Positions 42,184 through 55,874 of a stretch of 64,000 bases of DNA are shown piece by piece. The position numbers and the translations under genes are program-made. A model generated the notes under the pieces. It searched no databases and was not told the DNA's origin. It was given only the letters and a program-made list of their open reading frames with translations. The stretch is from assembly GCA_964629365.1 (NCBI GenBank), contig CAZVRB010000004.1, positions 18,827 through 82,826 of the forward strand, in the 5' to 3' direction. Origin of the DNA: an uncultured Leptospiraceae bacterium. GTDB taxonomy: Bacteria > Spirochaetota > UBA4802 > UB4802. Every line of letters begins with the position of its first letter. Position 1 is the stretch's first letter.

Positions 42184-42855
42184 TTATAACACAGGAAAAC
42201 CATGCAGGGCCGCGTCCTTTATGGCCTGTACATTATTGTTTACCGTGCCCCCCCTGAAGGCGGCGCTGCCGGCAACAATAATCCTGGCACCTGCTTTTAC
42301 TATTTCTGATATATTATCAACAGTTATTCCACCATCAACCTGTATTGCTGTATGTTCATTAAGACCGTTTTGTGTAATATATTCTTTTAATCGCAAAATT
42401 TTCTTCAATGACATCGGCATGAATTTCTGACCATAGAACCCGGGGTCAACCGACATGATCAATACCATGTCAGCATATTCGAGTAGATCAAACAATACAT
42501 CAACCGGTGTGGACGGGTTGAGGCTGATCCCCGCCAGGATACCCGCAGAACGGATTTTCTGCAATAGACGTACCGGAAAACGGGTGCTCTCGTAATGTAT
42601 AGTTATACATTCAGGATTAATGTCAATATATGAATCTATTGAATCTTCCGGCCGTTCAATCATAAGGTGCACATCAAGGGGAACAGGTGAATGATCACGA
42701 ACATTCTTAATATAAGCCGGACCGAAAGTAAGATTGGGGACAAAATGACCGTCCATAACATCCATGTGCAACCAGTCTACTATGTCCGGATCCACCTGTC
42801 CGATTTCACTGCCCAGTGTACACAGGTCAGTAGCGATAACAGATGGTGACACCAT
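42184..42855 (-). CDS. rpe: ribulose-phosphate 3-epimerase
   Basis: VSPSVIATD...HMDVMDGHFVPN...HLMI...VDGGI. Start taken at the internal MVSPS. Confidence 0.85.
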   Translation of the reverse strand: MVSPSVIATDLCTLGSEIGQVDPDIVDWLHMDVMDGHFVPNLTFGPAYIKNVRDHSPVPLDVHLMIERPEDSIDSYIDINPECITIHYESTRFPVRLLQKIRSAGILAGISLNPSTPVDVLFDLLEYADMVLIMSVDPGFYGQKFMPMSLKKILRLKEYITQNGLNEHTAIQVDGGITVDNISEIVKAGARIIVAGSAAFRGGTVNNNVQAIKDAALHGFPVL

Positions 42856-42862
42856 TATACTG

Positions 42863-43897
42863 TTATTCAAATTCTTCCACATTAACCGTGAACACCTTTA
42901 CCTGTTTCTTGTCCCTGAGAAGGGTTACCCGTGAATTACCGGTTCGATGAAATACAAATGATATAACGCTACCGGGTTTCATGGTTCGTGAAAAACGCAG
43001 CCGCTTTGACTGGTTGTCCTCAACGTATGCCTCAAACAGCCCCTCTTCTTCGTCTGAAGGAATTGTATAATCAATTTTCTCAAATGCCCGGTACGGATGA
43101 TTTTTAAGAGGGTAATATAGCACCTTCACCACTACTGTCTGCCCCTTGCTTATTGCTGTACCGGGACGGGGCGACTGGGATACGATAATACCGCTTTTAT
43201 CCTGCAAACCGGTTTTGACTATCTCCTCAGAGATTTCCACGTTGTGGGCCATCAACAGGTCGTAGGCAAGATTTATGGACTGTCCCTGGCAATCAGGCAT
43301 CTTTGCGTCCACCCCTGTTTTTCCCGTTGAAACCAGCAGGTTAATTTTTCTTTCAGGAGTGATCCTCTCACCCGGTTTAGGATCCTGCGCAATAATGATA
43401 TTTCCCGCAGTTTTATCTGAAGGCAGGTAGGAGATAACCCCCGGGTTGATAGTTATCGTCTTGTCATGTATATGCATATTTTTAAGTTTATTCAGGGCAA
43501 AAGGAAGTTCAATTCCAACCAGGTTAGGGGCTTCCATCTTCAGGCTGCTTCTACTGACAAGCAGGCGAACTGTGCTTCCGTCAGATACAATATTACCACT
43601 TTCAGGGTATTGCTCCAGCACAAGACCATTGTCAATATCATATACATCATAAAATCGTATCTCCGGCCTGAGACCCTTTCGGCTTATGCTGTTATACACG
43701 TCAATAAACTGTCTGCCCACCACGTTGGGCACACGTACCTGCTTCTCAGGCCTGGTCAGCACAACTACTACTATGGCAGAGACGAGCATATATAATGAAA
43801 ATCCCACGAAAAGCGCCAGAAGCACTTTGAAAGGAACACCCTCTACCCAGCTTTTTTGGGTATCATCTGTACTATTATCAGTTTTCTTTTTGGTCAT
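42863..43897 (-). CDS. PASTA-domain membrane protein (three PASTA repeats)
   Basis: Single TM, then repeated VPNVVGRQ / APNLVGIELPFA / MPDCQGQS PASTA-type modules. The start is uncertain (MTKKK). Confidence 0.6.
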   Translation of the reverse strand: MTKKKTDNSTDDTQKSWVEGVPFKVLLALFVGFSLYMLVSAIVVVVLTRPEKQVRVPNVVGRQFIDVYNSISRKGLRPEIRFYDVYDIDNGLVLEQYPESGNIVSDGSTVRLLVSRSSLKMEAPNLVGIELPFALNKLKNMHIHDKTITINPGVISYLPSDKTAGNIIIAQDPKPGERITPERKINLLVSTGKTGVDAKMPDCQGQSINLAYDLLMAHNVEISEEIVKTGLQDKSGIIVSQSPRPGTAISKGQTVVVKVLYYPLKNHPYRAFEKIDYTIPSDEEEGLFEAYVEDNQSKRLRFSRTMKPGSVISFVFHRTGNSRVTLLRDKKQVKVFTVNVEEFE

Positions 43898-44046
43898 TTG
43901 CATTCTCACCTGAATATAACACTGTATGCCGGTTACTGAACATCCCACCCCGATCAACGTCAAGTACTAATTATAGTTATATATAGTTTTCCCTTATGGT
44001 ATACAATATATAAAATGTCAATTTTAATGTCCTCCCACAATAAAAA

Positions 44047-44126: not shown

Positions 44127-46004
44127 ATGGGAAAAAACATACCCGGCCTCACCCCTGCAGAACTTGCCGAACTCATTGAAAATATACCAGACCTGATACT
44201 ATCCATTGAATACCCATCAGGAGACATTAACTACATTAATACCGCTGCCCTGACCGCCCTCGGTGTTCCTTCCGGCAGCATTACCAATATCAAGCAACTT
44301 GCAAAAAACATTCCCCTGGACTATAGGAAAAAAATCCTCTCAAAGTGGAGAGATGTTACCGACGGCATTCTCTATCCCTCCATCACATTTAAAATGGAAA
44401 CTGCAGATGGAATAACACGCTGGATCGAAGATAAAAATATATACATAAAAGACAGGGATGGCAAAACTATTCGCATTCATGCCATTTTGCGTGATATTTC
44501 CGAAAGAAAACGGCTCGAAGAAGAGATGATGCAGTCATTTTATTTTTCTGAGAACCTCTTTTTGTATGCCCCTTATGCCATTATACATTTTACTATCGAT
44601 GGTTCTATCAAGCGCTTCAACAAATCCTTCAGGGGCATACTGGATTTCTCTGATGATACTTTTAATGAATACAATCTCTGGGAAGATCCCCAGTTAAAAT
44701 CAGAGGGTATTGAAATTCTTCTCCGGGAGGTTCTCAAGGGCAGGATAATGGAGATACCACCGTATCCTTATACCGCCACAAGAGACAACGAGACAGTTAC
44801 CTATACGCTATCCGGCAAGGCCTTTCCATACCTGGGTGATTCCGTGTCCCCCTCAGGTCTTGTGCTCATGCTTGAAGACGTAACAGATAAACGAAAGAAA
44901 GAACATGAATACATGGAAGCAAAAAAACTTGAAAGTATCGGAAGACTGGCCCGCGGGGTTGCCCACGAATTCAACAACATCCTGGCCGGCATCTCGGGTT
45001 TTTCAGAGATATTACTTCGAAAGATAAGCCAGGATGATTCAAACTATCGATTTGTCGAAAAAATTCACGATGCGTCGATGAAAGCCGCCACCCTCACCAA
45101 CCAGCTTCTTGGATTTGCCCGGGGACAGATTTACAATCCATCATATATCGACATTCACAGTCCAATAATGTTTGCCCTTGGCGCCACTCCGGGAATACAC
45201 AGGAATATCACCATTGAAAAAAACATAGAATCGGCACGTTACCGGGTATTTGCCGATGTAAACCAGATCAGGCAGGTGTTTATTGAGCTTTTCCGTAATG
45301 CTTCAGAAGCTATTTTTGACAGTGGTACCATCAAGATTGACGTATGTCATGTATATTCATCAGAAATCCAGGATCAGCTTGTTGACTCAAGCGAAAATAG
45401 ATTTATACAGGTAAGTATCACCGATACAGGCGAGGGTATGGACCATGAAACTATCTCACATGCCTTCGAGCCTTATTTCACCACCAGGGAGTCCAGCAAA
45501 CATGCCGGTATGGGACTTGCAATTGCCTATGGTCATTTAAAACGTCATGGCGGTAACCTTTCAATTCACAGTTCTCCCGGCACGGGAACTACCGCCCTTG
45601 TTGTACTGCCCGAGGCAACTCCCCCGGGTGGATACTCTGAGAGCACAATACCTTACAATCGGGTACTGATCATTGATGACAGTGAAGAAACAACCTCCAT
45701 GCTGAAAACATACCTGGAAGACTGCGGGTGTTATGTGCAGAACACATCAAGTGGCAAGGCAGGTATCGAGTTGATCAAGAATAGCTACCTTACTTTTGAT
45801 CTGATATTTCTCGACCTGGTTATACCGGATGTGAGTGGCAAAGAAGTTCTTCATACCATCAGGCGCCACAAGATGGATATACCGGTCATACTTATTTCCG
45901 GAACCGATGCACATTCAATACTGGAAGATTTTACTTCTGACAAGAATCTTCATGTACTTTTAAAGCCATTCAGCCTTGAAGACCTCGAGGCGATGCTTGG
46001 ATGA
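44127..46004 (+). CDS. PAS-domain hybrid sensor histidine kinase with C-terminal receiver
   Basis: HisKA HEFNNILAGISGF, HATPase GEGMD...GMGLAIA, REC VLIIDDSEE...DLVIPDVSG. Confidence 0.8.
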   Translation: MGKNIPGLTPAELAELIENIPDLILSIEYPSGDINYINTAALTALGVPSGSITNIKQLAKNIPLDYRKKILSKWRDVTDGILYPSITFKMETADGITRWIEDKNIYIKDRDGKTIRIHAILRDISERKRLEEEMMQSFYFSENLFLYAPYAIIHFTIDGSIKRFNKSFRGILDFSDDTFNEYNLWEDPQLKSEGIEILLREVLKGRIMEIPPYPYTATRDNETVTYTLSGKAFPYLGDSVSPSGLVLMLEDVTDKRKKEHEYMEAKKLESIGRLARGVAHEFNNILAGISGFSEILLRKISQDDSNYRFVEKIHDASMKAATLTNQLLGFARGQIYNPSYIDIHSPIMFALGATPGIHRNITIEKNIESARYRVFADVNQIRQVFIELFRNASEAIFDSGTIKIDVCHVYSSEIQDQLVDSSENRFIQVSITDTGEGMDHETISHAFEPYFTTRESSKHAGMGLAIAYGHLKRHGGNLSIHSSPGTGTTALVVLPEATPPGGYSESTIPYNRVLIIDDSEETTSMLKTYLEDCGCYVQNTSSGKAGIELIKNSYLTFDLIFLDLVIPDVSGKEVLHTIRRHKMDIPVILISGTDAHSILEDFTSDKNLHVLLKPFSLEDLEAMLG

Positions 46005-46005
46005 T

Positions 46006-47355
46006 CTAGATCTGGTATTTATTCAGCTTATCATATAATACGCTGCGGCTGATTCCCAGCAATCGGGACGCTTCTGCCCTGTTATTTCCGGCGATCTTGA
46101 GAACCTTGAGGATGTGCTTTTTCTCAAACCCTGACATGGCAATGGAAAGCTGCAACGGGGAAGAGTTGTCGGTTGTCTCCTCCCTCCTCTCAGGCAAAAC
46201 ATGCATTATCGTATCTACACCAATTACTGGTTTTGATTCAAGTATAAGAGCATGTTCGGTCATATGCGCAAGTTCACGCACGTTTCCCTTCCATTCCCGT
46301 TGCTGAAGGATCTCAAGGGCTTCTTTGTCCATGCAGCTTACAGTCTTGTTGAGATCCCGTGAGAAGATTTCGATAAAATGTTCTACCAGGAGGGGTATAT
46401 CCTCAACTTTTTCACGAAGGGGGGAAACATTCATTTCTATCCCGGACAGGCGATAATAAAGGTCTTCACGAAAACTTCCATTTTCGATCTGTCCCCGAAT
46501 ATCCGCATTAGTGGCACTTATAACCCGCACGTCAACTTTCAGGGGTTTGCTGGACCCAACAGGTTTAATCTCACGTTCCTGAAGAAATCTAAGCAGCTTA
46601 CTTTGAACCTGCAACGAGAGGTTACCTATCTCATCAAGGAAAATGGTGCCCATGTGGGCCTCTTCAAACATCCCCTTGCGTGTCCTGTCAGCACCGGTAA
46701 AGGCACCCTTGAGATGACCAAAAAGCTCTGATTCAATAATTGATTCGGTCAGGGTGCTGCAGTCGATAGGGATAAAAGCCCTGTCAGAGCGGTCACTTTC
46801 ATTATGAATAGCCCTTGCGATAAGTTCTTTACCTGTTCCGCTTTCACCCAGCACCATTATTGATGCATTAGTCGGGGCCACCTGTAAAATCTGGCGCTTC
46901 AACTGTTCCATGGGAGGGCTGTCACCTATAAGAAGATTAACTCCCCTGTTGCTCTTTTTTGACGACTTCAGGTAGGCAAGCTCACGTTTCAGACGTACAG
47001 TCTCAAGGTTTTTCTCAACCTTGATAATAAACTCATCCGCGTTCAAAGGCTTGGTGATAAAATCACTGGCTCCATGCCTTATAGCCTGCACGGCCTCAGG
47101 CACACCCCCAACCCCGGTAATCATTATTATGGGGATCTCCAGGTCTGTAGAACGGACTTTTTGTATCAATTCCAGGCCATCCATAACTGGCATTGCCATA
47201 TCTGAAATAATCAGATCAAAGGGTTCTTTCTGCAATTCTGCCAGTCCTTCAGCCCCATTTGATCCTTTTTTCACGGTATGGCCGGAAACAGTTAATACGT
47301 CCTCAATATATTCAAGAATTGCTGGACTATCATCGACAATAAGAATATGGCTCAT
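46006..47355 (-). CDS. sigma-54-dependent Fis-family response regulator (NtrC-like)
   Basis: [16 protein letters not shown]+ [14 protein letters not shown] motif, C-terminal Fis HTH. Confidence 0.9.
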
Positions 47356-47496: not shown

Positions 47497-48618
47497 ATGA
47501 TGAAAATACTATTAATGGCAGATTTACACCTGGGAGCTGTTTCCCCGGATACAGGAATTGATGACTCTGTGCGGCTGGATACCTTCAAAAAGATCGTATC
47601 CCTTGCGCATGAACATGATATTCTCATCATAGCCGGTGACCTTTTTGAAGGCCCTTTTGCAGACACCTATACCTTCATGCAAATGAATTCAGAACTGCAG
47701 TCACTTATTGATGCCGGTATTGATGTGATATTTACCGCGGGTGAAAGTGAGTTCCGTGATATTCCTAATCTCAGCAACCTGCTTTATATTCCGGCAAGCC
47801 ACACATTTCTTAACGATCACCCGGTATCCCCGGTTCATATAGAAAAGAACGGCACAAACCTGTACATATACAGCAAGCCGGCACTTGATACACAGGATGT
47901 TGCCACCATTCAAAAATGTGACAGCGAAGGATTCCACCTGGGAGTTTTCCATATTGACTTTGACCCGGGAAATCCCACCGGTGAAAGTCTCGTATACAAG
48001 CTTCCACGAGAAGCGGTAAAATCCCTGGATCTTGACTTTTACGCCCTGGGGCATAATCACAATTTCAAGCTATATAAGTTTCAGAACAGGATCATTGGTG
48101 CCTACCCGGGAAGTCCCGAAGCCACATCACCCGATGAGACCGGTGATCGATATGTATTGTCCATACATGTGGCTGGATCGGACATTATGCAGATTAAAAG
48201 GCTGGCTGTAAATACATTGAGCCTTGAAGAATTGCATATAGACTGCGAAACAATCAACTCCCAGGTTGAACTGGTGAATACTATTAACGCATCGGCTTCT
48301 CCCCGAACTGTACTCAGGGTTACCCTTTCAGGGAACAGGTCCTTTCCAATCGAAGGTATTTTTAATGCTCTTCAGGACAGGTGTGCAGATTTCAGACTTA
48401 TGGATAATTCAATACCCGACCTGCATCTTTTGATAATGCAGCATGCGTCTGAGCATTCACTCAGGGGAACACTTATGACAAGGTTACAGGAACTGGTAAA
48501 AGAAGACATGATTCCCGGAGATATCGACAAGACTATCCTTGCTGAAATACTGCACAGGATTAATACATCAAAACAATTCACACCGGAGGAATTGCTGTGC
48601 GAATCAAGAAATGCATAG
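47497..48618 (+). CDS. SbcD/Mre11-like calcineurin-type metallophosphoesterase
   Basis: MKILLMADLHLG, IIAGDLFEG and ALGHNH phosphoesterase motifs. Confidence 0.75.
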   Translation: MMKILLMADLHLGAVSPDTGIDDSVRLDTFKKIVSLAHEHDILIIAGDLFEGPFADTYTFMQMNSELQSLIDAGIDVIFTAGESEFRDIPNLSNLLYIPASHTFLNDHPVSPVHIEKNGTNLYIYSKPALDTQDVATIQKCDSEGFHLGVFHIDFDPGNPTGESLVYKLPREAVKSLDLDFYALGHNHNFKLYKFQNRIIGAYPGSPEATSPDETGDRYVLSIHVAGSDIMQIKRLAVNTLSLEELHIDCETINSQVELVNTINASASPRTVLRVTLSGNRSFPIEGIFNALQDRCADFRLMDNSIPDLHLLIMQHASEHSLRGTLMTRLQELVKEDMIPGDIDKTILAEILHRINTSKQFTPEELLCESRNA

Positions 48619-50756
48619 CAACATGTCCCGGTGTATTCCAGGACAAAACCATTGTACTTAATGACGGCATTACCGTTGTGCATGGAAAAAACAATGCCGG
48701 GAAAACGCTTCTTTCCCGGGCCATGATTGATGCCATCTTTCCATTCACGTCTTCTCCACTGCTTGAAGGGGAATCATGGAAAAACATCTCCATTGAAATC
48801 GATACCAGGTTTGATAACGCCACCTACAGGTTCATGCGAAAGGACATGAATCATTGCTCCATAAACACGGTGAACGACAGGGGAAGCATTTTACATTCTC
48901 ATAAAATTAACAATACCGGTAACTCAATTTCTGACATCGTACATGAATTGCAGTCAAAAAACGGTTTCGTCCGGCTGTCTGACTTTTACCGCAACATTGG
49001 CTTCCATGGCTTCATTGCAGCCGGTTACCTGCCATCTGCCGTTGATCTTGACAACCTTCCCCCTGTTTCACGGGACTCCATAGACTTCCTGTTGCTACAG
49101 GACCGCAGCAATTATTACGCAGCATATAGTGCAATCCAGGAATCTTACAGCAACAGGGACATTTCATCGAAAGTACACAATGAGCTAATGAACCAGACTT
49201 TCAAATTCGAACGTCTTCACAAGGACACGGTAAAAAAACTTGAACTAATGAAAATCAATGCATCCAAGAGAGAAAAACAACAAGGTGAACTTGCCCGGTA
49301 CAACGAGGAGATTAAATCCATATCCAGCAAGATTGATGCCTTCAGTATTCGCAAAAATCACATATCCAGGATACTGGAGGCCTGTTCCAGGAAAAACACC
49401 CTTGTTCAAGATATACAGAATATACAGAAAAAAATTAAGACCGGGATAGAACAGGAGAAGGAGATCGCCGCCAGGGAAAAAGAACTGGAGAAGTCATACC
49501 CTCAATTTAGAAATTTCGACCAGGCAAAGAAGAACAACATTAAGCATATGCAGGACAGGTACAGGGAGATACGGACTATTAATGAAAAAATTGAAAATGA
49601 ACTTTTTAAACGTGAATCGAGGGTCAGGCGTGTAGGCAGTATACTTGCAGGAATAAACCTGCTGGTATTGGCAGCTGTAGTATGGTTATTCCTGCAAACT
49701 TCACTCATACTAAGCCGTGACGAAAAAGTGATTATTATCGGCAGCATGATCATTATGCAGCTTCTCAGCTATATTTCACATATAATATACAGGTATCGTC
49801 TTTTCCACTCATCGGTAATATATAACCTGGAACAACAAAAACAGGATCTTGAGCAGAAGCTGGAGAATATATTACGGGCAAATGACATCGACATGCAGAA
49901 TATTGACCTTGAAGAGATTTATGAATTTCTTTTACAGTATTTTGAAGAATACGGAGAATTTAACGAGAAACAACTGGATCTTTACATGCTGAAGAAGGCG
50001 CATAATGAACAATATATCAATTCCAGCCTGGAAGAAAAAAAAGAAGCGCTGGAAGCAGACCTGCAAAGCTTATCGGGAACCATACAGGAAATGGCCAACA
50101 TGGCAGGAATTGATGCGGAGATACTGAACGATGAAGAGTCACTGCTTACCATGATGGATGAAACCATTGAAAAAATAGACACACTGACAAGCGAGCTCAC
50201 CGCAAAACAGAAAATTGCCGACAGCATATCATTTAATCTCCAGGAAAGTCCGGACGCAACGAATGAACAGAAACAACTTGAACAGCAGCTTGACGAATAC
50301 AATGAAATGTTAGATACTCTTACCAGAAGGCAGAAGCACGTGAAATACCTGCTTGATCTTTTCGACGAATCGATACAGAATAGAATGCAAATACAAATGG
50401 AACAGCTTGTGCATACAACAGCATCGATATTCAGGGAATTAACCGGGTCCAGTTATTCTCAACCAATTGACATGAATACCATTGTCAATGTAATGGAAAA
50501 AAATCATACTGACAGTACCCGCAATGTTTCGTTTTCTCACCTCCTTCAATTGGCAATAAAATGTGCCCTCCATGATTTTTTGGTTGATTCTGGTGTCTCA
50601 ATTCCTTTAATTCTTGATGATCCCCTTGTTTTTATAGATGAGGATAAAATTGATGCATTCGGGAAGATTATTGAAAAAACAGCACAATCGCGTCAGGTTA
50701 TAGTATTCACTCACAGCAATGCGCTGAACAGCTGGTATACCCCGGTAGAATTGTAA
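48597..50756 (+). CDS. SMC/Rad50/SbcC-like ABC ATPase with central transmembrane hairpin
   Basis: Walker A GKNNAGKT at the N-terminus, long coiled-coil-like Glu/Lys/Gln-rich arms, and C-terminal signature/Walker B/D-loop (IPLILDDPLVFIDEDK). Two hydrophobic helices sit mid-protein at the coiled-coil apex. Overlaps the SbcD-like gene by 22 nt. Confidence 0.65.
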   Translation: MRIKKCIATCPGVFQDKTIVLNDGITVVHGKNNAGKTLLSRAMIDAIFPFTSSPLLEGESWKNISIEIDTRFDNATYRFMRKDMNHCSINTVNDRGSILHSHKINNTGNSISDIVHELQSKNGFVRLSDFYRNIGFHGFIAAGYLPSAVDLDNLPPVSRDSIDFLLLQDRSNYYAAYSAIQESYSNRDISSKVHNELMNQTFKFERLHKDTVKKLELMKINASKREKQQGELARYNEEIKSISSKIDAFSIRKNHISRILEACSRKNTLVQDIQNIQKKIKTGIEQEKEIAAREKELEKSYPQFRNFDQAKKNNIKHMQDRYREIRTINEKIENELFKRESRVRRVGSILAGINLLVLAAVVWLFLQTSLILSRDEKVIIIGSMIIMQLLSYISHIIYRYRLFHSSVIYNLEQQKQDLEQKLENILRANDIDMQNIDLEEIYEFLLQYFEEYGEFNEKQLDLYMLKKAHNEQYINSSLEEKKEALEADLQSLSGTIQEMANMAGIDAEILNDEESLLTMMDETIEKIDTLTSELTAKQKIADSISFNLQESPDATNEQKQLEQQLDEYNEMLDTLTRRQKHVKYLLDLFDESIQNRMQIQMEQLVHTTASIFRELTGSSYSQPIDMNTIVNVMEKNHTDSTRNVSFSHLLQLAIKCALHDFLVDSGVSIPLILDDPLVFIDEDKIDAFGKIIEKTAQSRQVIVFTHSNALNSWYTPVEL

Positions 50757-50762
50757 TAACAT

Positions 50763-51752
50763 ATGGACCAGGACGGACAGTTAACATTCAATGACGATCC
50801 TCTTCTGACGGGAAGTAACGAGGCATTCCGTCTTATTGAGGAAGGAAGCTTTTTCGCTGCCGTGGAAAAGCTGGATACACTTATGTCCACTAACCCTGAT
50901 TATCCCGGACTGGCTGAAGGATACAGGGCCGCCAAGTTCTGGCAAAACCGAAAAAAAACTATCGAAGAGTTGAACCCGGGAAGGGATACCGCTGATTTTC
51001 TTATGAAACAATGGGAACAATTCACCAGCTACGCGGAAGAAAAGAATCTTTCCGGTTCAACTGCCTACAACTCGGTTATGAGATACATTTTTTTTACCGC
51101 CTCTGAGCATTATAAAATAGCCTTCAATGACAGGGAAAATCCAACCGATAATTTCACACTACTCTTGCAGCTGGGCACCTGTTTCCTGCGTCTTGGCGAA
51201 TATGCTCATACCATAGAGGCCCTTGAATATGCCAGGAGTTCGTATCGAAGCAATGCTTTTCTGCTAGCCCTGCTGGGAGAGGCCTATTTTCATAAGAATG
51301 ATATCCCCAAATCCCTTCTCTATTTCAGAGAAGCATTTCTTATAGATCCCTCAGAAATTGATCTCACCCTCATCAAGGCCCGGCCCATACATGATATTAT
51401 TGCCATAATTAAACAGGAGAATCCTGAAATTGAGGAAGTACGCGAATGGATACCAGTATACGGATTTCTCCATGACATTTTTTACGTAAAACGTCATCTC
51501 AATTCCCAACAGGTTGAACAGTTAAAACGTGAGATTTACACACTTGAACAGAATTACCAGACCATGAGCAAAGATCGCATACGGACATCAAATATTGTCC
51601 CCAGGCTGATAAATAAATATCTCTGGATGCTTGACTATTTTGAATTTCAAAACTATGATTTTGAAAGTATTACTGATATCCGTTCCAGGCTGCTTGCTAT
51701 TGACAGGGAAAAGTTTGAACCATATTTCAAGAATAAACCTGGATTATCGTAA
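50763..51752 (+). CDS. TPR-like repeat protein, hypothetical
   Basis: LGTCFLRLGEYAHTIEALEYA...LLGEAYFHKNDIPKSLLYFREAFLIDP TPR-like helices. Starts 7 nt after the ATPase gene. Confidence 0.45.
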   Translation: MDQDGQLTFNDDPLLTGSNEAFRLIEEGSFFAAVEKLDTLMSTNPDYPGLAEGYRAAKFWQNRKKTIEELNPGRDTADFLMKQWEQFTSYAEEKNLSGSTAYNSVMRYIFFTASEHYKIAFNDRENPTDNFTLLLQLGTCFLRLGEYAHTIEALEYARSSYRSNAFLLALLGEAYFHKNDIPKSLLYFREAFLIDPSEIDLTLIKARPIHDIIAIIKQENPEIEEVREWIPVYGFLHDIFYVKRHLNSQQVEQLKREIYTLEQNYQTMSKDRIRTSNIVPRLINKYLWMLDYFEFQNYDFESITDIRSRLLAIDREKFEPYFKNKPGLS

Positions 51753-54674: not shown

Positions 54675-55874
54675 ATGGTAAGTGCAATCATGAAAATAAT
54701 TATTCGCCTCATGTACAATTTTATCGTCTTTTTTATCATGTGTTCGCTACTATCTTCCCCTCTTCATGCCGGCAACATATCAGTAGATATGATATCTTTT
54801 GACAATTATTCAGGCTACCTGCTTCTTCTGCTGTTAATGTTTCTACTGTGTATAAATATTGTTATTTGCCTGATATGGTATTCACTTTTTCAGAAAAAGA
54901 TGCACCTGTACATGGCATTGCTTAGCGGGGTATGGATTATCCATACATTGTTACTGTGTCCCCAGTGTAATCCTTTTTCTACAGAAACCATGAAAACCTG
55001 TATACTGGTCTGCATGACAATTACGCCACCTCTCATCTACGTCATTCTACAGCATGTATACAGGATTTTTCTTCGGGGATTAAACAAGATAATGTGCACC
55101 TTCTACCTTTCACTTTTTTCAATCATGCTGATATTACAAATAACCGGATTAATATATACACTACGGCTTGTCAGCTGTCTCAGTATAATGATTTCCGCAA
55201 TCCTGGTGGCCGGATATTGTATATATGCCCTGCACCTTATCAAACCTGACAAAAAAATATTCATCATAATAATATATATCCTGATCCCATTTCTTTTTAT
55301 AACCAGGGACATGATCTATTATCTTTTCTTAACCCGTGATTTCACAGTAACGGTATTCTTTATGTTTCTGCCATTAATGCTGGGATTACATTTTTTAGCA
55401 TGGCATTCTATTTTTGAGAAAAAAGTAATTAAAAAGGTTCTGTACGTTAGAGACATCACTATTTACCCAAATGGTACCGGCAGGGTGGCATCTCAGCATT
55501 GTCATCTCATGGAAACCGTAATCGAGTATATACGGAACAATTATTCATGTCCGCTTACCCGTGAAGACCTTGCCGACATTGTAGAGATCAGCCCGGATTA
55601 TCTCGGCCGCATGTTTCAGAAATATACCGGGAAGAAGCTCAAAGAATATATCAATGAATATCGTATCACTGAATCTGCCAGGCTGATTAGCGAAACCAGC
55701 CACAGTTTTATTCACATCGCCTATGAAGTGGGCTTTGAATGTGTTGCAACTTTTAACAGGTATTTTCAGAAAGTATATGGAATGGCACCCAGGCTTTATC
55801 GACATAAAATGTCGTCAATGGTTAGTTCCGCAATGACAGCAGTGGAGCAGGGATCCTGCCACCCCGGCGTATAA
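54675..55874 (+). CDS. membrane-embedded (7-8 TM) AraC-family HTH regulator
   Basis: N-terminal polytopic membrane domain, then a C-terminal HTH_AraC (IAYEVGFECVATFNRYFQKVYGMAPRLYR). Confidence 0.7.
   Translation: MVSAIMKIIIRLMYNFIVFFIMCSLLSSPLHAGNISVDMISFDNYSGYLLLLLLMFLLCINIVICLIWYSLFQKKMHLYMALLSGVWIIHTLLLCPQCNPFSTETMKTCILVCMTITPPLIYVILQHVYRIFLRGLNKIMCTFYLSLFSIMLILQITGLIYTLRLVSCLSIMISAILVAGYCIYALHLIKPDKKIFIIIIYILIPFLFITRDMIYYLFLTRDFTVTVFFMFLPLMLGLHFLAWHSIFEKKVIKKVLYVRDITIYPNGTGRVASQHCHLMETVIEYIRNNYSCPLTREDLADIVEISPDYLGRMFQKYTGKKLKEYINEYRITESARLISETSHSFIHIAYEVGFECVATFNRYFQKVYGMAPRLYRHKMSSMVSSAMTAVEQGSCHPGV

Follow-up and report, generated by a model that had tools for sequence, protein, structure and literature searches.

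A cassette of three genes, here called A, B, and C, occupied positions 47,497 to 51,752 of a 64,000-nt stretch of DNA from an uncultured Leptospiraceae bacterium (contig CAZVRB010000004.1 of assembly GCA_964629365.1, positions 18,827 to 82,826 of the forward strand; the whole stretch is called the window below). Gene A encoded a calcineurin-type phosphoesterase, gene B an ATPase of the ATP-binding cassette (ABC) class with an intramolecular coiled coil, and gene C an all-alpha protein of the tetratricopeptide repeat (TPR) type. A preliminary description, made from the letters of this DNA, had proposed three open reading frames (ORFs), with A and B overlapping by 22 nt and C following 7 nt later, and these coordinates were confirmed. 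Gene B started with a GTG codon, with GGAGG 5′ of the start, and the spacer between B and C was 6 nt, the ATG of C being at the seventh base past the B stop codon. The coordinates of the genes and their features are given in Table 1.

Table 1. Genes and sequence features of the A-B-C cassette (positions in the window). aa, amino acids; TM, transmembrane helix; KD19, Kyte-Doolittle hydropathy over 19 residues; AF2, AlphaFold2.
Feature	Position	Strand	Description
Gene A	47497..48618	+	373 aa; calcineurin-type phosphoesterase (YhaO/SbcF-type, SbcD/Mre11-fold)
A motif I, DLH	47521..47529	+	Metal ligands; D9 and H11 in 34/34 A orthologues
A motif III, GESE (canonical GNHD)	47740..47751	+	Asn in 0/34 (E in 18, D in 6, also R/V/I); catalytic His in 8/34
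A motif V, GHNH	48049..48060	+	Second His in 34/34, first His in 24/34
A C-terminal tail (aa 308-373, ...SLRG...LC...)	48418..48615	+	Putative site of binding to the ATPase, like the Rad50-binding domain of Mre11
Gene B	48597..50756	+	719 aa; YhaN/SbcE-type Rad50-fold ABC ATPase, intramolecular coiled coil
B Walker A, GKNNAGKT (aa 30-37)	48684..48707	+	G30, G35, and K36 kept in at least 86% of 88 family members
B PQFxxF patch	49500..49517	+	Ascending arm, ~40 aa before TM1; F304 in 84/88, P302 in 70/88
B hydrophobic helix 1 (TM1, aa 349-372), ILAGINLLVLAAVVWLFLQTSLIL	49641..49712	+	Predicted TM; KD19 maximum 2.47; Hessa-type sum -1.5 kcal/mol; helical in the AF2 model
B loop SRDEK (aa 373-377)	49713..49727	+	Between the helices; predicted to lie on the periplasmic side
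B hydrophobic helix 2 (TM2, aa 378-398), VIIIGSMIIMQLLSYISHIIY	49728..49790	+	Predicted TM; KD19 at least 1.6 at 378-380; Hessa-type sum +2.3 kcal/mol
B subfamily signature YEFLLQYFEEYGEF (aa 442-455; YEFLLQYFEEY)	49920..49961	+	Descending arm, ~45 aa after TM2; candidate docking site for C
B Walker B and D-loop, PLILDDPLVFID (aa 670-681)	50604..50639	+	P670 in 88/88, D674 in 81/88, D681 in 81/88
B H-loop region, RQVIVFTH	50691..50714	+	R699 and Q700 in 88/88, H706 in 62/88
Gene C	50763..51752	+	329 aa; cytoplasmic all-alpha TPR-type solenoid
C N-terminal peptide GQLTFNDDP	50775..50801	+	Q6, F9, D11, and D12 invariant in 48 sequences; low-confidence (disordered) tail
C canonical TPR repeats (aa 130-200)	51150..51362	+	TPR_1/TPR_2 just below the Pfam cut-offs; PDB profile matches cover aa 130-200

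The order A-B-C was colinear and close-packed in all 33 genome loci with sufficient DNA upstream, and it was also found in loci sampled via B rather than via C. A phosphoesterase gene translationally coupled to the ATPase gene, and 5′ of it, was likewise present at loci L041, L043, L045, L048, and L049. The G+C content of the cassette equaled that of its surroundings. A promoter and terminator scan gave no signal above the shuffled expectation and was not used.

Gene B encoded a Rad50-fold ABC ATPase, with A as its cognate phosphoesterase of the SbcD/Mre11 fold. The preliminary description had likened B to Rad50 and to structural maintenance of chromosomes (SMC) proteins, with Walker A and B heads and long charged arms; the motifs, the helices of the structural model, the charges of the arms and Rad50 as top fold match all bore this out. 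Among 88 family members the signature motif was degenerate while Walker A, Walker B, and the D-loop were still conserved, the sequences without a counted Walker A being mostly truncated at the N-terminus. Position 675, within Walker B, was D in 43/88 and E in 41/88. At the signature the window protein read SFSHLLQL, and the subfamily was reduced to S-x-x-H, with Ser in 38/88 and Gly absent, compared with LSxGxxDQ in YhaN-type proteins. The AF2 model of B, built on nine homologues with a predicted local distance difference test score (pLDDT) of 80, consisted of an ABC head and long helices at residues 192-300, 309-364, 374-395, and 407-616. A Foldseek search of the PDB with this model returned Rad50 of the MRN complex (7zr1) as best match, followed by MukB, LmuB, and Smc5/6, and a B profile found Rad50 heads in the PDB (E 3.9e-15) but E. 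coli SbcC only at E 2.5e-4. The arms (49167-50456) differed in charge, with 23% K+R and 16% D+E in the ascending arm and 9% K+R and 21% D+E in the descending arm. A basic ascending and an acidic descending arm have the charge complementarity expected of an antiparallel intramolecular coiled coil, which these opposite charges would zip together.

At its midpoint, in place of a zinc hook, B carried two hydrophobic helices of sufficient length to cross a lipid bilayer. The cysteines of B were at positions 6, 10, 87, 263, and 656, and no CxxC occurred anywhere in the 719 aa. Within A, B, and C, a Kyte-Doolittle 19-mer value of at least 1.6 was reached solely by these two segments, and C contained no hydrophobic segment at all. 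Both segments were 21-24 residues long, ~50% I/L/V/M/F and uncharged inside, with a short loop between them and R/K-rich flanks (KRESRVRR before TM1, YRYR after TM2). On a Hessa-type insertion scale (after Hessa et al., 2005), the protein-wide mean for B was 21.6 ± 6.7 kcal/mol, and helix 2 lay ~3 standard deviations below it. The loop would be periplasmic and the topology N-in/C-in, because the ATPase heads on both sides would be cytoplasmic and the flanks are R/K-rich; the positive-inside count was too unclean to use across the family and was applied to window B alone.

A central hydrophobic block was present in 117 of 117 full-length homologues, with a median length of 57 aa and a relative position of 0.51 ± 0.018. 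These homologues spanned identities from 89% down to distant YhaN-type proteins of 830-1295 aa, and the conservation of a midpoint hairpin among them is far beyond chance. None of the 117 had a central CxxC, and one had an incidental CxxC just beyond the hydrophobic block. In a second search, with a YhaN-type profile, all 71 best AAA_27 matches had a hydrophobic center, whereas the lower-scoring SbcC-type matches lacked it, 16 of them having a central CxxC instead. The YhaN of a cultured Peribacillus (P0349, Bacillaceae, 998 aa) had LLSSGLIALICVLAIVSFF-EGQN-LGGMILLSAALILIVSRLLF at its center, and its gene order (yhzD ... Metallophos(400 aa)-AAA_27(998 aa) ... OB/HD(YhaM)-YhaL-PrsA) is that of the B. 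subtilis yhaO-yhaN-yhaM region. The hairpin is the norm of the whole YhaN/AAA_27 superfamily. The preliminary description was right about two hydrophobic helices at the apex where the hook would be, but they are no special feature of this locus. In the window subfamily the TM blocks held 0.95-1.34 bits, against a protein mean of 1.51, and their hydrophobicity was universal. Since hydrophobicity was kept and sequence was not, the helices are likely to face lipid rather than to form a specific protein interface.

In B. subtilis, the 'unique central domain' of SbcE has a hydrophobic first half, lacks CxxC, and gave no soluble protein at all in E. coli (Krishnamurthy et al., 2009; PMC2811018). The word 'transmembrane' is absent from that paper, and in the literature on YhaN, YhaO, SbcE, and SbcF nothing was found that calls the SbcE center transmembrane or describes a TPR partner. 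The center might instead be a buried, hydrophobic dimerization domain that takes the place of a hinge in an SMC-like protein that is soluble. Such a domain would agree with the wording of the B. subtilis authors, with the SbcE-YFP (yellow fluorescent protein) foci that 10% of growing cells showed on their nucleoids (PMC2811018), and with the marginal hydrophobicity of TM2 on the insertion scale, but it fits poorly with two uncharged segments of 21-24 residues joined by a short loop and flanked by R/K-rich stretches. Conservation of hydrophobicity without conservation of sequence is also atypical of a specific protein interface, and the isolated SbcE domain was insoluble (PMC2811018). We regard the soluble alternative as very unlikely.

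The relatives of B placed it beside YhaN rather than SbcC. Its N-terminus scored 24.4 bits for PF13514 (AAA_27; cut-off 22), although the match covered only profile positions 1-55 of 206. A phmmer search of 1.8 billion cluster representatives gave 393 relatives of B, 114 of them at E ≤ 1e-10; most belonged to a family of ~700 aa, and behind it stood proteins of 830-1300 aa with AAA_27 and AAA_23. In profile alignments (hhalign), the B subfamily matched the YhaN type end to end with the hydrophobic centers aligned (100%, E 4.4e-44, 689 columns, 2-716 vs. 4-1029), and the A subfamily matched the phosphoesterases encoded directly 5′ of YhaN-type genes (99.9%, E 6e-34). Based on these two matches, the A-B pair is assigned by profile homology to the SbcF/SbcE (YhaO/YhaN) family rather than to ordinary SbcCD. 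What the preliminary description had offered as a resemblance to SbcE/SbcF can now be called homology, with AAA_27 also above its threshold.

An ordinary sbcCD operon with a misread hook was considered and rejected, and we give it next to no probability. Weak SbcD and Rad50 matches and the label 'SbcCD ATPase subunit', which the Joint Genome Institute (JGI) attaches to some relatives, would speak for it, one long relative being named 'YhaN' by the same source. However, B is devoid of CxxC, and the NCBIfam equivalogs for SbcC, SbcD, Rad50, and Mre11 scored far below their cut-offs (best 33.7 vs. 500 for A and 29.1 vs. 1087 for B). The E. coli SbcC profile at E 2.5e-4 was also much weaker than the YhaN type at 4e-44, and true SbcC-type matches had a central CxxC and no hydrophobic center.

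Gene A matched PF00149 (Metallophos) at 27.6 bits, above the Pfam cut-off of 21.5, and gave weak Mre11/SbcD matches in NCBIfam and the PDB. Its motifs were conserved to different extents among the 34 orthologues. Motif II (GD), like motif I, was invariant, and the His of motif IV was kept in 27/34. Motif III had lost its Asn in every sequence, whereas the YhaO-type partners of long YhaN-type ATPases kept GNHD; a full set of five intact phosphoesterase motifs, including GNH[DE], was not found in A.

The C-terminal tail of A is presumably the equivalent of the Rad50-binding domain of Mre11 and, by that analogy, would bind B. At locus L042 (4819-5022) a 67-aa ORF corresponded to this tail alone; it overlapped B by 22 nt, as in the window, and C then followed. 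A hidden Markov model (HMM) built from the last 75 residues of A matched the ORF (41 bits, E 9e-15), and hhalign recovered it at 89%. Pairwise BLASTP between this mini-ORF and window A gave no match, so that the link required the tail HMM and hhalign. The catalytic domain was gone from the locus, and the 195 nt upstream of the mini-ORF were AT-rich intergenic DNA. This tail-only ORF implies that the catalytic domain of A is dispensable in at least one lineage and that the tail is not. The preliminary description had spoken of a 'Mre11/Rad50-like machine': these words suit the ancestry better than the chemistry, given GESE at motif III and the loss of the catalytic domain in one lineage.

Gene C encoded a cytoplasmic TPR-type solenoid and was a constant companion of A and B. 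Its AF2 model (pLDDT 91) was an all-alpha solenoid of 16 helices, and its profile matched consensus TPR proteins in the PDB at E 2.6e-29. In Pfam it scored 26.5 bits for TPR_1 (cut-off 27.8) and 26.4 bits for TPR_2 (cut-off 27), and Foldseek against the PDB returned generic TPR folds only, with a TM-score of ~0.3. The 226 homologues of C, with 54-67% identity, were all from uncultured Spirochaetota, and a scan with one genome per species gave 36 loci, all in Spirochaetota or 'Leptospirales' metagenome-assembled genomes (MAGs). Across loci, identities were 54-67% for C, 29-40% for A, and 20-29% for B, making C the best-conserved subunit. Residues 1-8 of C had a pLDDT <50, and the QLTFxDD peptide at this end is a candidate docking peptide.

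The most conserved 20-aa block of B was that of YEFLLQYFEEYGEF on the descending arm, with 2.74 bits compared with 2.38 for Walker A. Eleven loci sampled via B rather than via C were used to compare this motif with the presence of C. YEFLLQYFEEY was present in 7/7 loci with C (L001, L002, L003, L042, L044, L046, and L047) and absent in 4/4 loci without C (L041, L043, L045, and L048). From this co-occurrence we infer that C docks at the motif, near the membrane.

Taken with its relatives, the window cassette resembles B. subtilis SbcF/SbcE (YhaO/YhaN; AAA_27/COG4717) in its gene order, with a phosphoesterase-ATPase pair that overlaps or abuts, in the profile homology of both proteins from end to end, in the lack of CxxC, in a DDP-type Walker B and in a two-helix hydrophobic center at the exact midpoint. 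It differs in that B is shorter (719 aa vs. ~950-1150 aa), LSxGxxDQ of the ATPase is degenerate, GNHD of the phosphoesterase has become GE(S)E or worse, and a conserved TPR subunit is added; YEFLLQYFEEY is missing from the YhaN type, and no yhaM-type HD/OB exoribonuclease gene lies near the window cassette. With SbcCD and Mre11-Rad50 it shares an ABC head with an antiparallel coiled coil, a calcineurin-fold phosphoesterase partner and a phosphoesterase C-terminal tail, which in window A is probably ATPase-binding. Unlike those systems, it has a membrane hairpin for a zinc hook, scores far below every equivalog cut-off, a degenerate motif III in A and a third, TPR subunit.

The cassette lay among housekeeping genes. 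The commonest neighborhood, in ~15/40 loci including the deepest branches, was rimM-KH-rpsP-rpe-PASTA upstream and on the opposite strand; other neighbors were dnaK-dnaJ or dctQM, and in the clade of the window valS lay 3′ of C. The PASTA gene was the most frequent divergent upstream neighbor of A-B-C, usually together with rpe (window 42184-42882). In the window its product (42863-43963, minus strand; 366 aa) had PASTA repeats behind a single TM helix at the N-terminus and lacked any kinase or penicillin-binding protein domain. A hybrid PAS histidine kinase (625 aa, plus strand) and a sigma-54-dependent response regulator (449 aa, minus strand) occupied 44127-47355. This pair stood between PASTA and A solely in the clade of the window, and since PASTA directly abuts A in deeper branches it looks like an insertion.

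Two contigs of one MAG (SRP220891_co1_11; loci L026 and L028) each carried a full PASTA-rpe / A-B-C locus, which reflects either true paralogues or a mixed bin. Further along the window, 54675-55874 (plus strand) encoded a protein of 399 aa, the long N-terminal half of which was hydrophobic and polytopic, with a helix-turn-helix (HTH) of the AraC type at the C-terminus; at the syntenic place L003 had two shorter genes, of 90 aa and 295 aa, the latter with HTH_AraC/HTH_18.

The preliminary description had held that the locus could equally be a nuclease-based defense module, and this did not survive comparison with PADLOC-DB v2 and with the genomic context. An SMC-like ATPase with a nuclease is a common pairing among defense systems, and B shares a generic SMC/Rad50 fold with the ATPases of Lamassu (LmuB), Wadjet (JetC), and PARIS (AriA). 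It matched JetC, AriA, and LmuB in PADLOC at E 1e-5 to 5e-3, and Foldseek listed LmuB and JetC among many SMC folds. However, these PADLOC matches were weak and of a generic coiled-coil or P-loop kind (≤21 bits), and A and C had none. In contrast to those systems, the window cassette came without cognate effector or kleisin genes and without island context, was conserved in its lineage with recurring housekeeping neighbors, and had a membrane hairpin at the apex of B. No mobile or defense genes adjoined it, and no island-like variable context was seen across the sampled loci; the cassette was present in every C locus amid housekeeping genes (rimM-rpsP-rpe-PASTA upstream; valS or dctQM downstream), its G+C content was that of its surroundings and the predicted nuclease site was eroded. 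With no usable PADLOC match and no mobile or island context, the defense reading is unsupported; a Lamassu-, Wadjet-, or PARIS-like anti-phage module was rejected as highly improbable.

Outside the spirochaete cassette, a YhaO/YhaN-type pair without C stood at L048 (1-2508), with a Y1 transposase and a DUF1156 protein as neighbors. Unlike the spirochaete cassette, part of the wider family may therefore sit in mobile or defense-like contexts.

The explanation that we favor, with fair though not high confidence, is that the YhaO/YhaN (SbcF/SbcE) module gave rise, specifically in Spirochaetota, to a complex of three subunits that is inherited with the chromosome and acts as a membrane-tethered, ATP-driven DNA clamp or scaffold. 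The two arms of each B molecule, of ~150 residues apiece (~20 nm if fully helical), would pair with each other as an antiparallel coiled coil; judging from the homologues Rad50/SbcC and SbcE, B would dimerize through heads that close on ATP. Hanging from the inner membrane by the hairpins, B would hold the heads ~20 nm inside the cell, at the periphery of the nucleoid, and the complex would be a loop closed by the bilayer. A dimer of A would sit on the heads or at the base of the arms, held by the C-terminal tails as by the Rad50-binding domain of Mre11, and C would dock at the YEFLLQYFEEY patch and decorate the membrane-proximal arms.

The B. subtilis relatives offer a possible function for such a complex. 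There, sbcE mutants are defective in double-strand break repair and in transformation, SbcE and SbcF are found at the pole of competent cells, and the two proteins interact in yeast two-hybrid assays (PMC2811018). By homology, the spirochaete complex may carry out ATP-dependent capture, tethering or processing of DNA, or of DNA ends, at the membrane. Constraint is strongest on C and on the motif where it presumably docks, and the catalytic motifs have decayed, which argues for a tethering or scaffold role. The action of the complex is probably closer to that of a clamp or scaffold tethered to the membrane than to that of a processive nuclease.

Several points weigh against this explanation. 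On the side of the enzyme, window A has lost just one of seven metal ligands; E83 could stand in for the Asn of motif III, and the protein may still bind metal or be active. The loss of the catalytic domain was seen in one protein cluster, on 2 contigs. The membrane assignment is a prediction, in which TM2 taken alone is marginal on the insertion scale (+2.3 kcal/mol). The putative A-B and C-B contacts are deduced from gene-level co-variation only, and the 11 loci in which the arm motif and C go together are phylogenetically not independent. Finally, DNA binding by B is presumed from homology, and with its catalytic motifs eroded the module may have left DNA metabolism altogether.

This last point leads to an alternative that we consider rather unlikely, although less so than the others: a membrane-anchored SMC-like scaffold with a TPR adaptor, serving the envelope, cell division or morphogenesis, in which the phosphoesterase is a pseudo-enzyme or a structural part. 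It would account for the erosion of motif III and, in part, of motifs IV and V of A, for the persistence of B, C, and the tail at L042 after loss of the catalytic domain, for the degenerate signature of B and for the constraint on C and the arm motif. The most frequent neighbor, a divergently encoded membrane protein with PASTA domains, would suit it as well, but this adjacency holds in only ~15/40 loci. B. subtilis SbcE was found with the membrane proteins YabT and SpoIIE in yeast two-hybrid (PMC4205851), yet all characterized relatives (Rad50, SbcC, and SbcE) act on DNA. B moreover retains conserved Walker A, Walker B, and D-loop motifs, and the invariance of motifs I and II and of the last His in A argues that metal binding was retained.

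The favored explanation, a membrane-tethered DNA clamp or scaffold, can be taken one step further, although only tentatively, and we would sooner doubt than trust this extension. An SbcE/SbcF-type module may have been converted in spirochaetes into a membrane-anchored, TPR-bound SMC-like scaffold that does not need nuclease chemistry, e.g., a tether between chromosome and membrane, or a factor that serves the envelope or division and is tied to the PASTA protein, and in all SbcE/YhaN proteins the 'unique central domain' may be a membrane anchor.

To our knowledge, no other SMC-like repair system of bacteria is as poorly understood as SbcE/SbcF. The hairpin turns the 'unique', insoluble center of SbcE into a concrete and testable architecture, that of a Rad50-like clamp hanging from the membrane. 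Such an anchor would fit the polar localization of SbcE beside the DNA-uptake machinery in competent cells, and, if it were true for all SbcE/YhaN proteins, theirs would be the sole family of the SMC/Rad50 class with arms ending in the bilayer. What is new in the Spirochaetota subfamily is the constant presence of C, the arm motif linked to it, the erosion of catalytic motifs in both A and B, and an A reduced to its tail in one lineage. With its decaying motifs, its deleted domain and its constrained TPR subunit and arm motif, the subfamily is a natural experiment that points to the parts that bear the function. The A-B-C cassette of spirochaetes is an uncharacterized variant of the poorly understood SbcE/SbcF system, defined by its TPR subunit, its arm motif and its catalytic decay.

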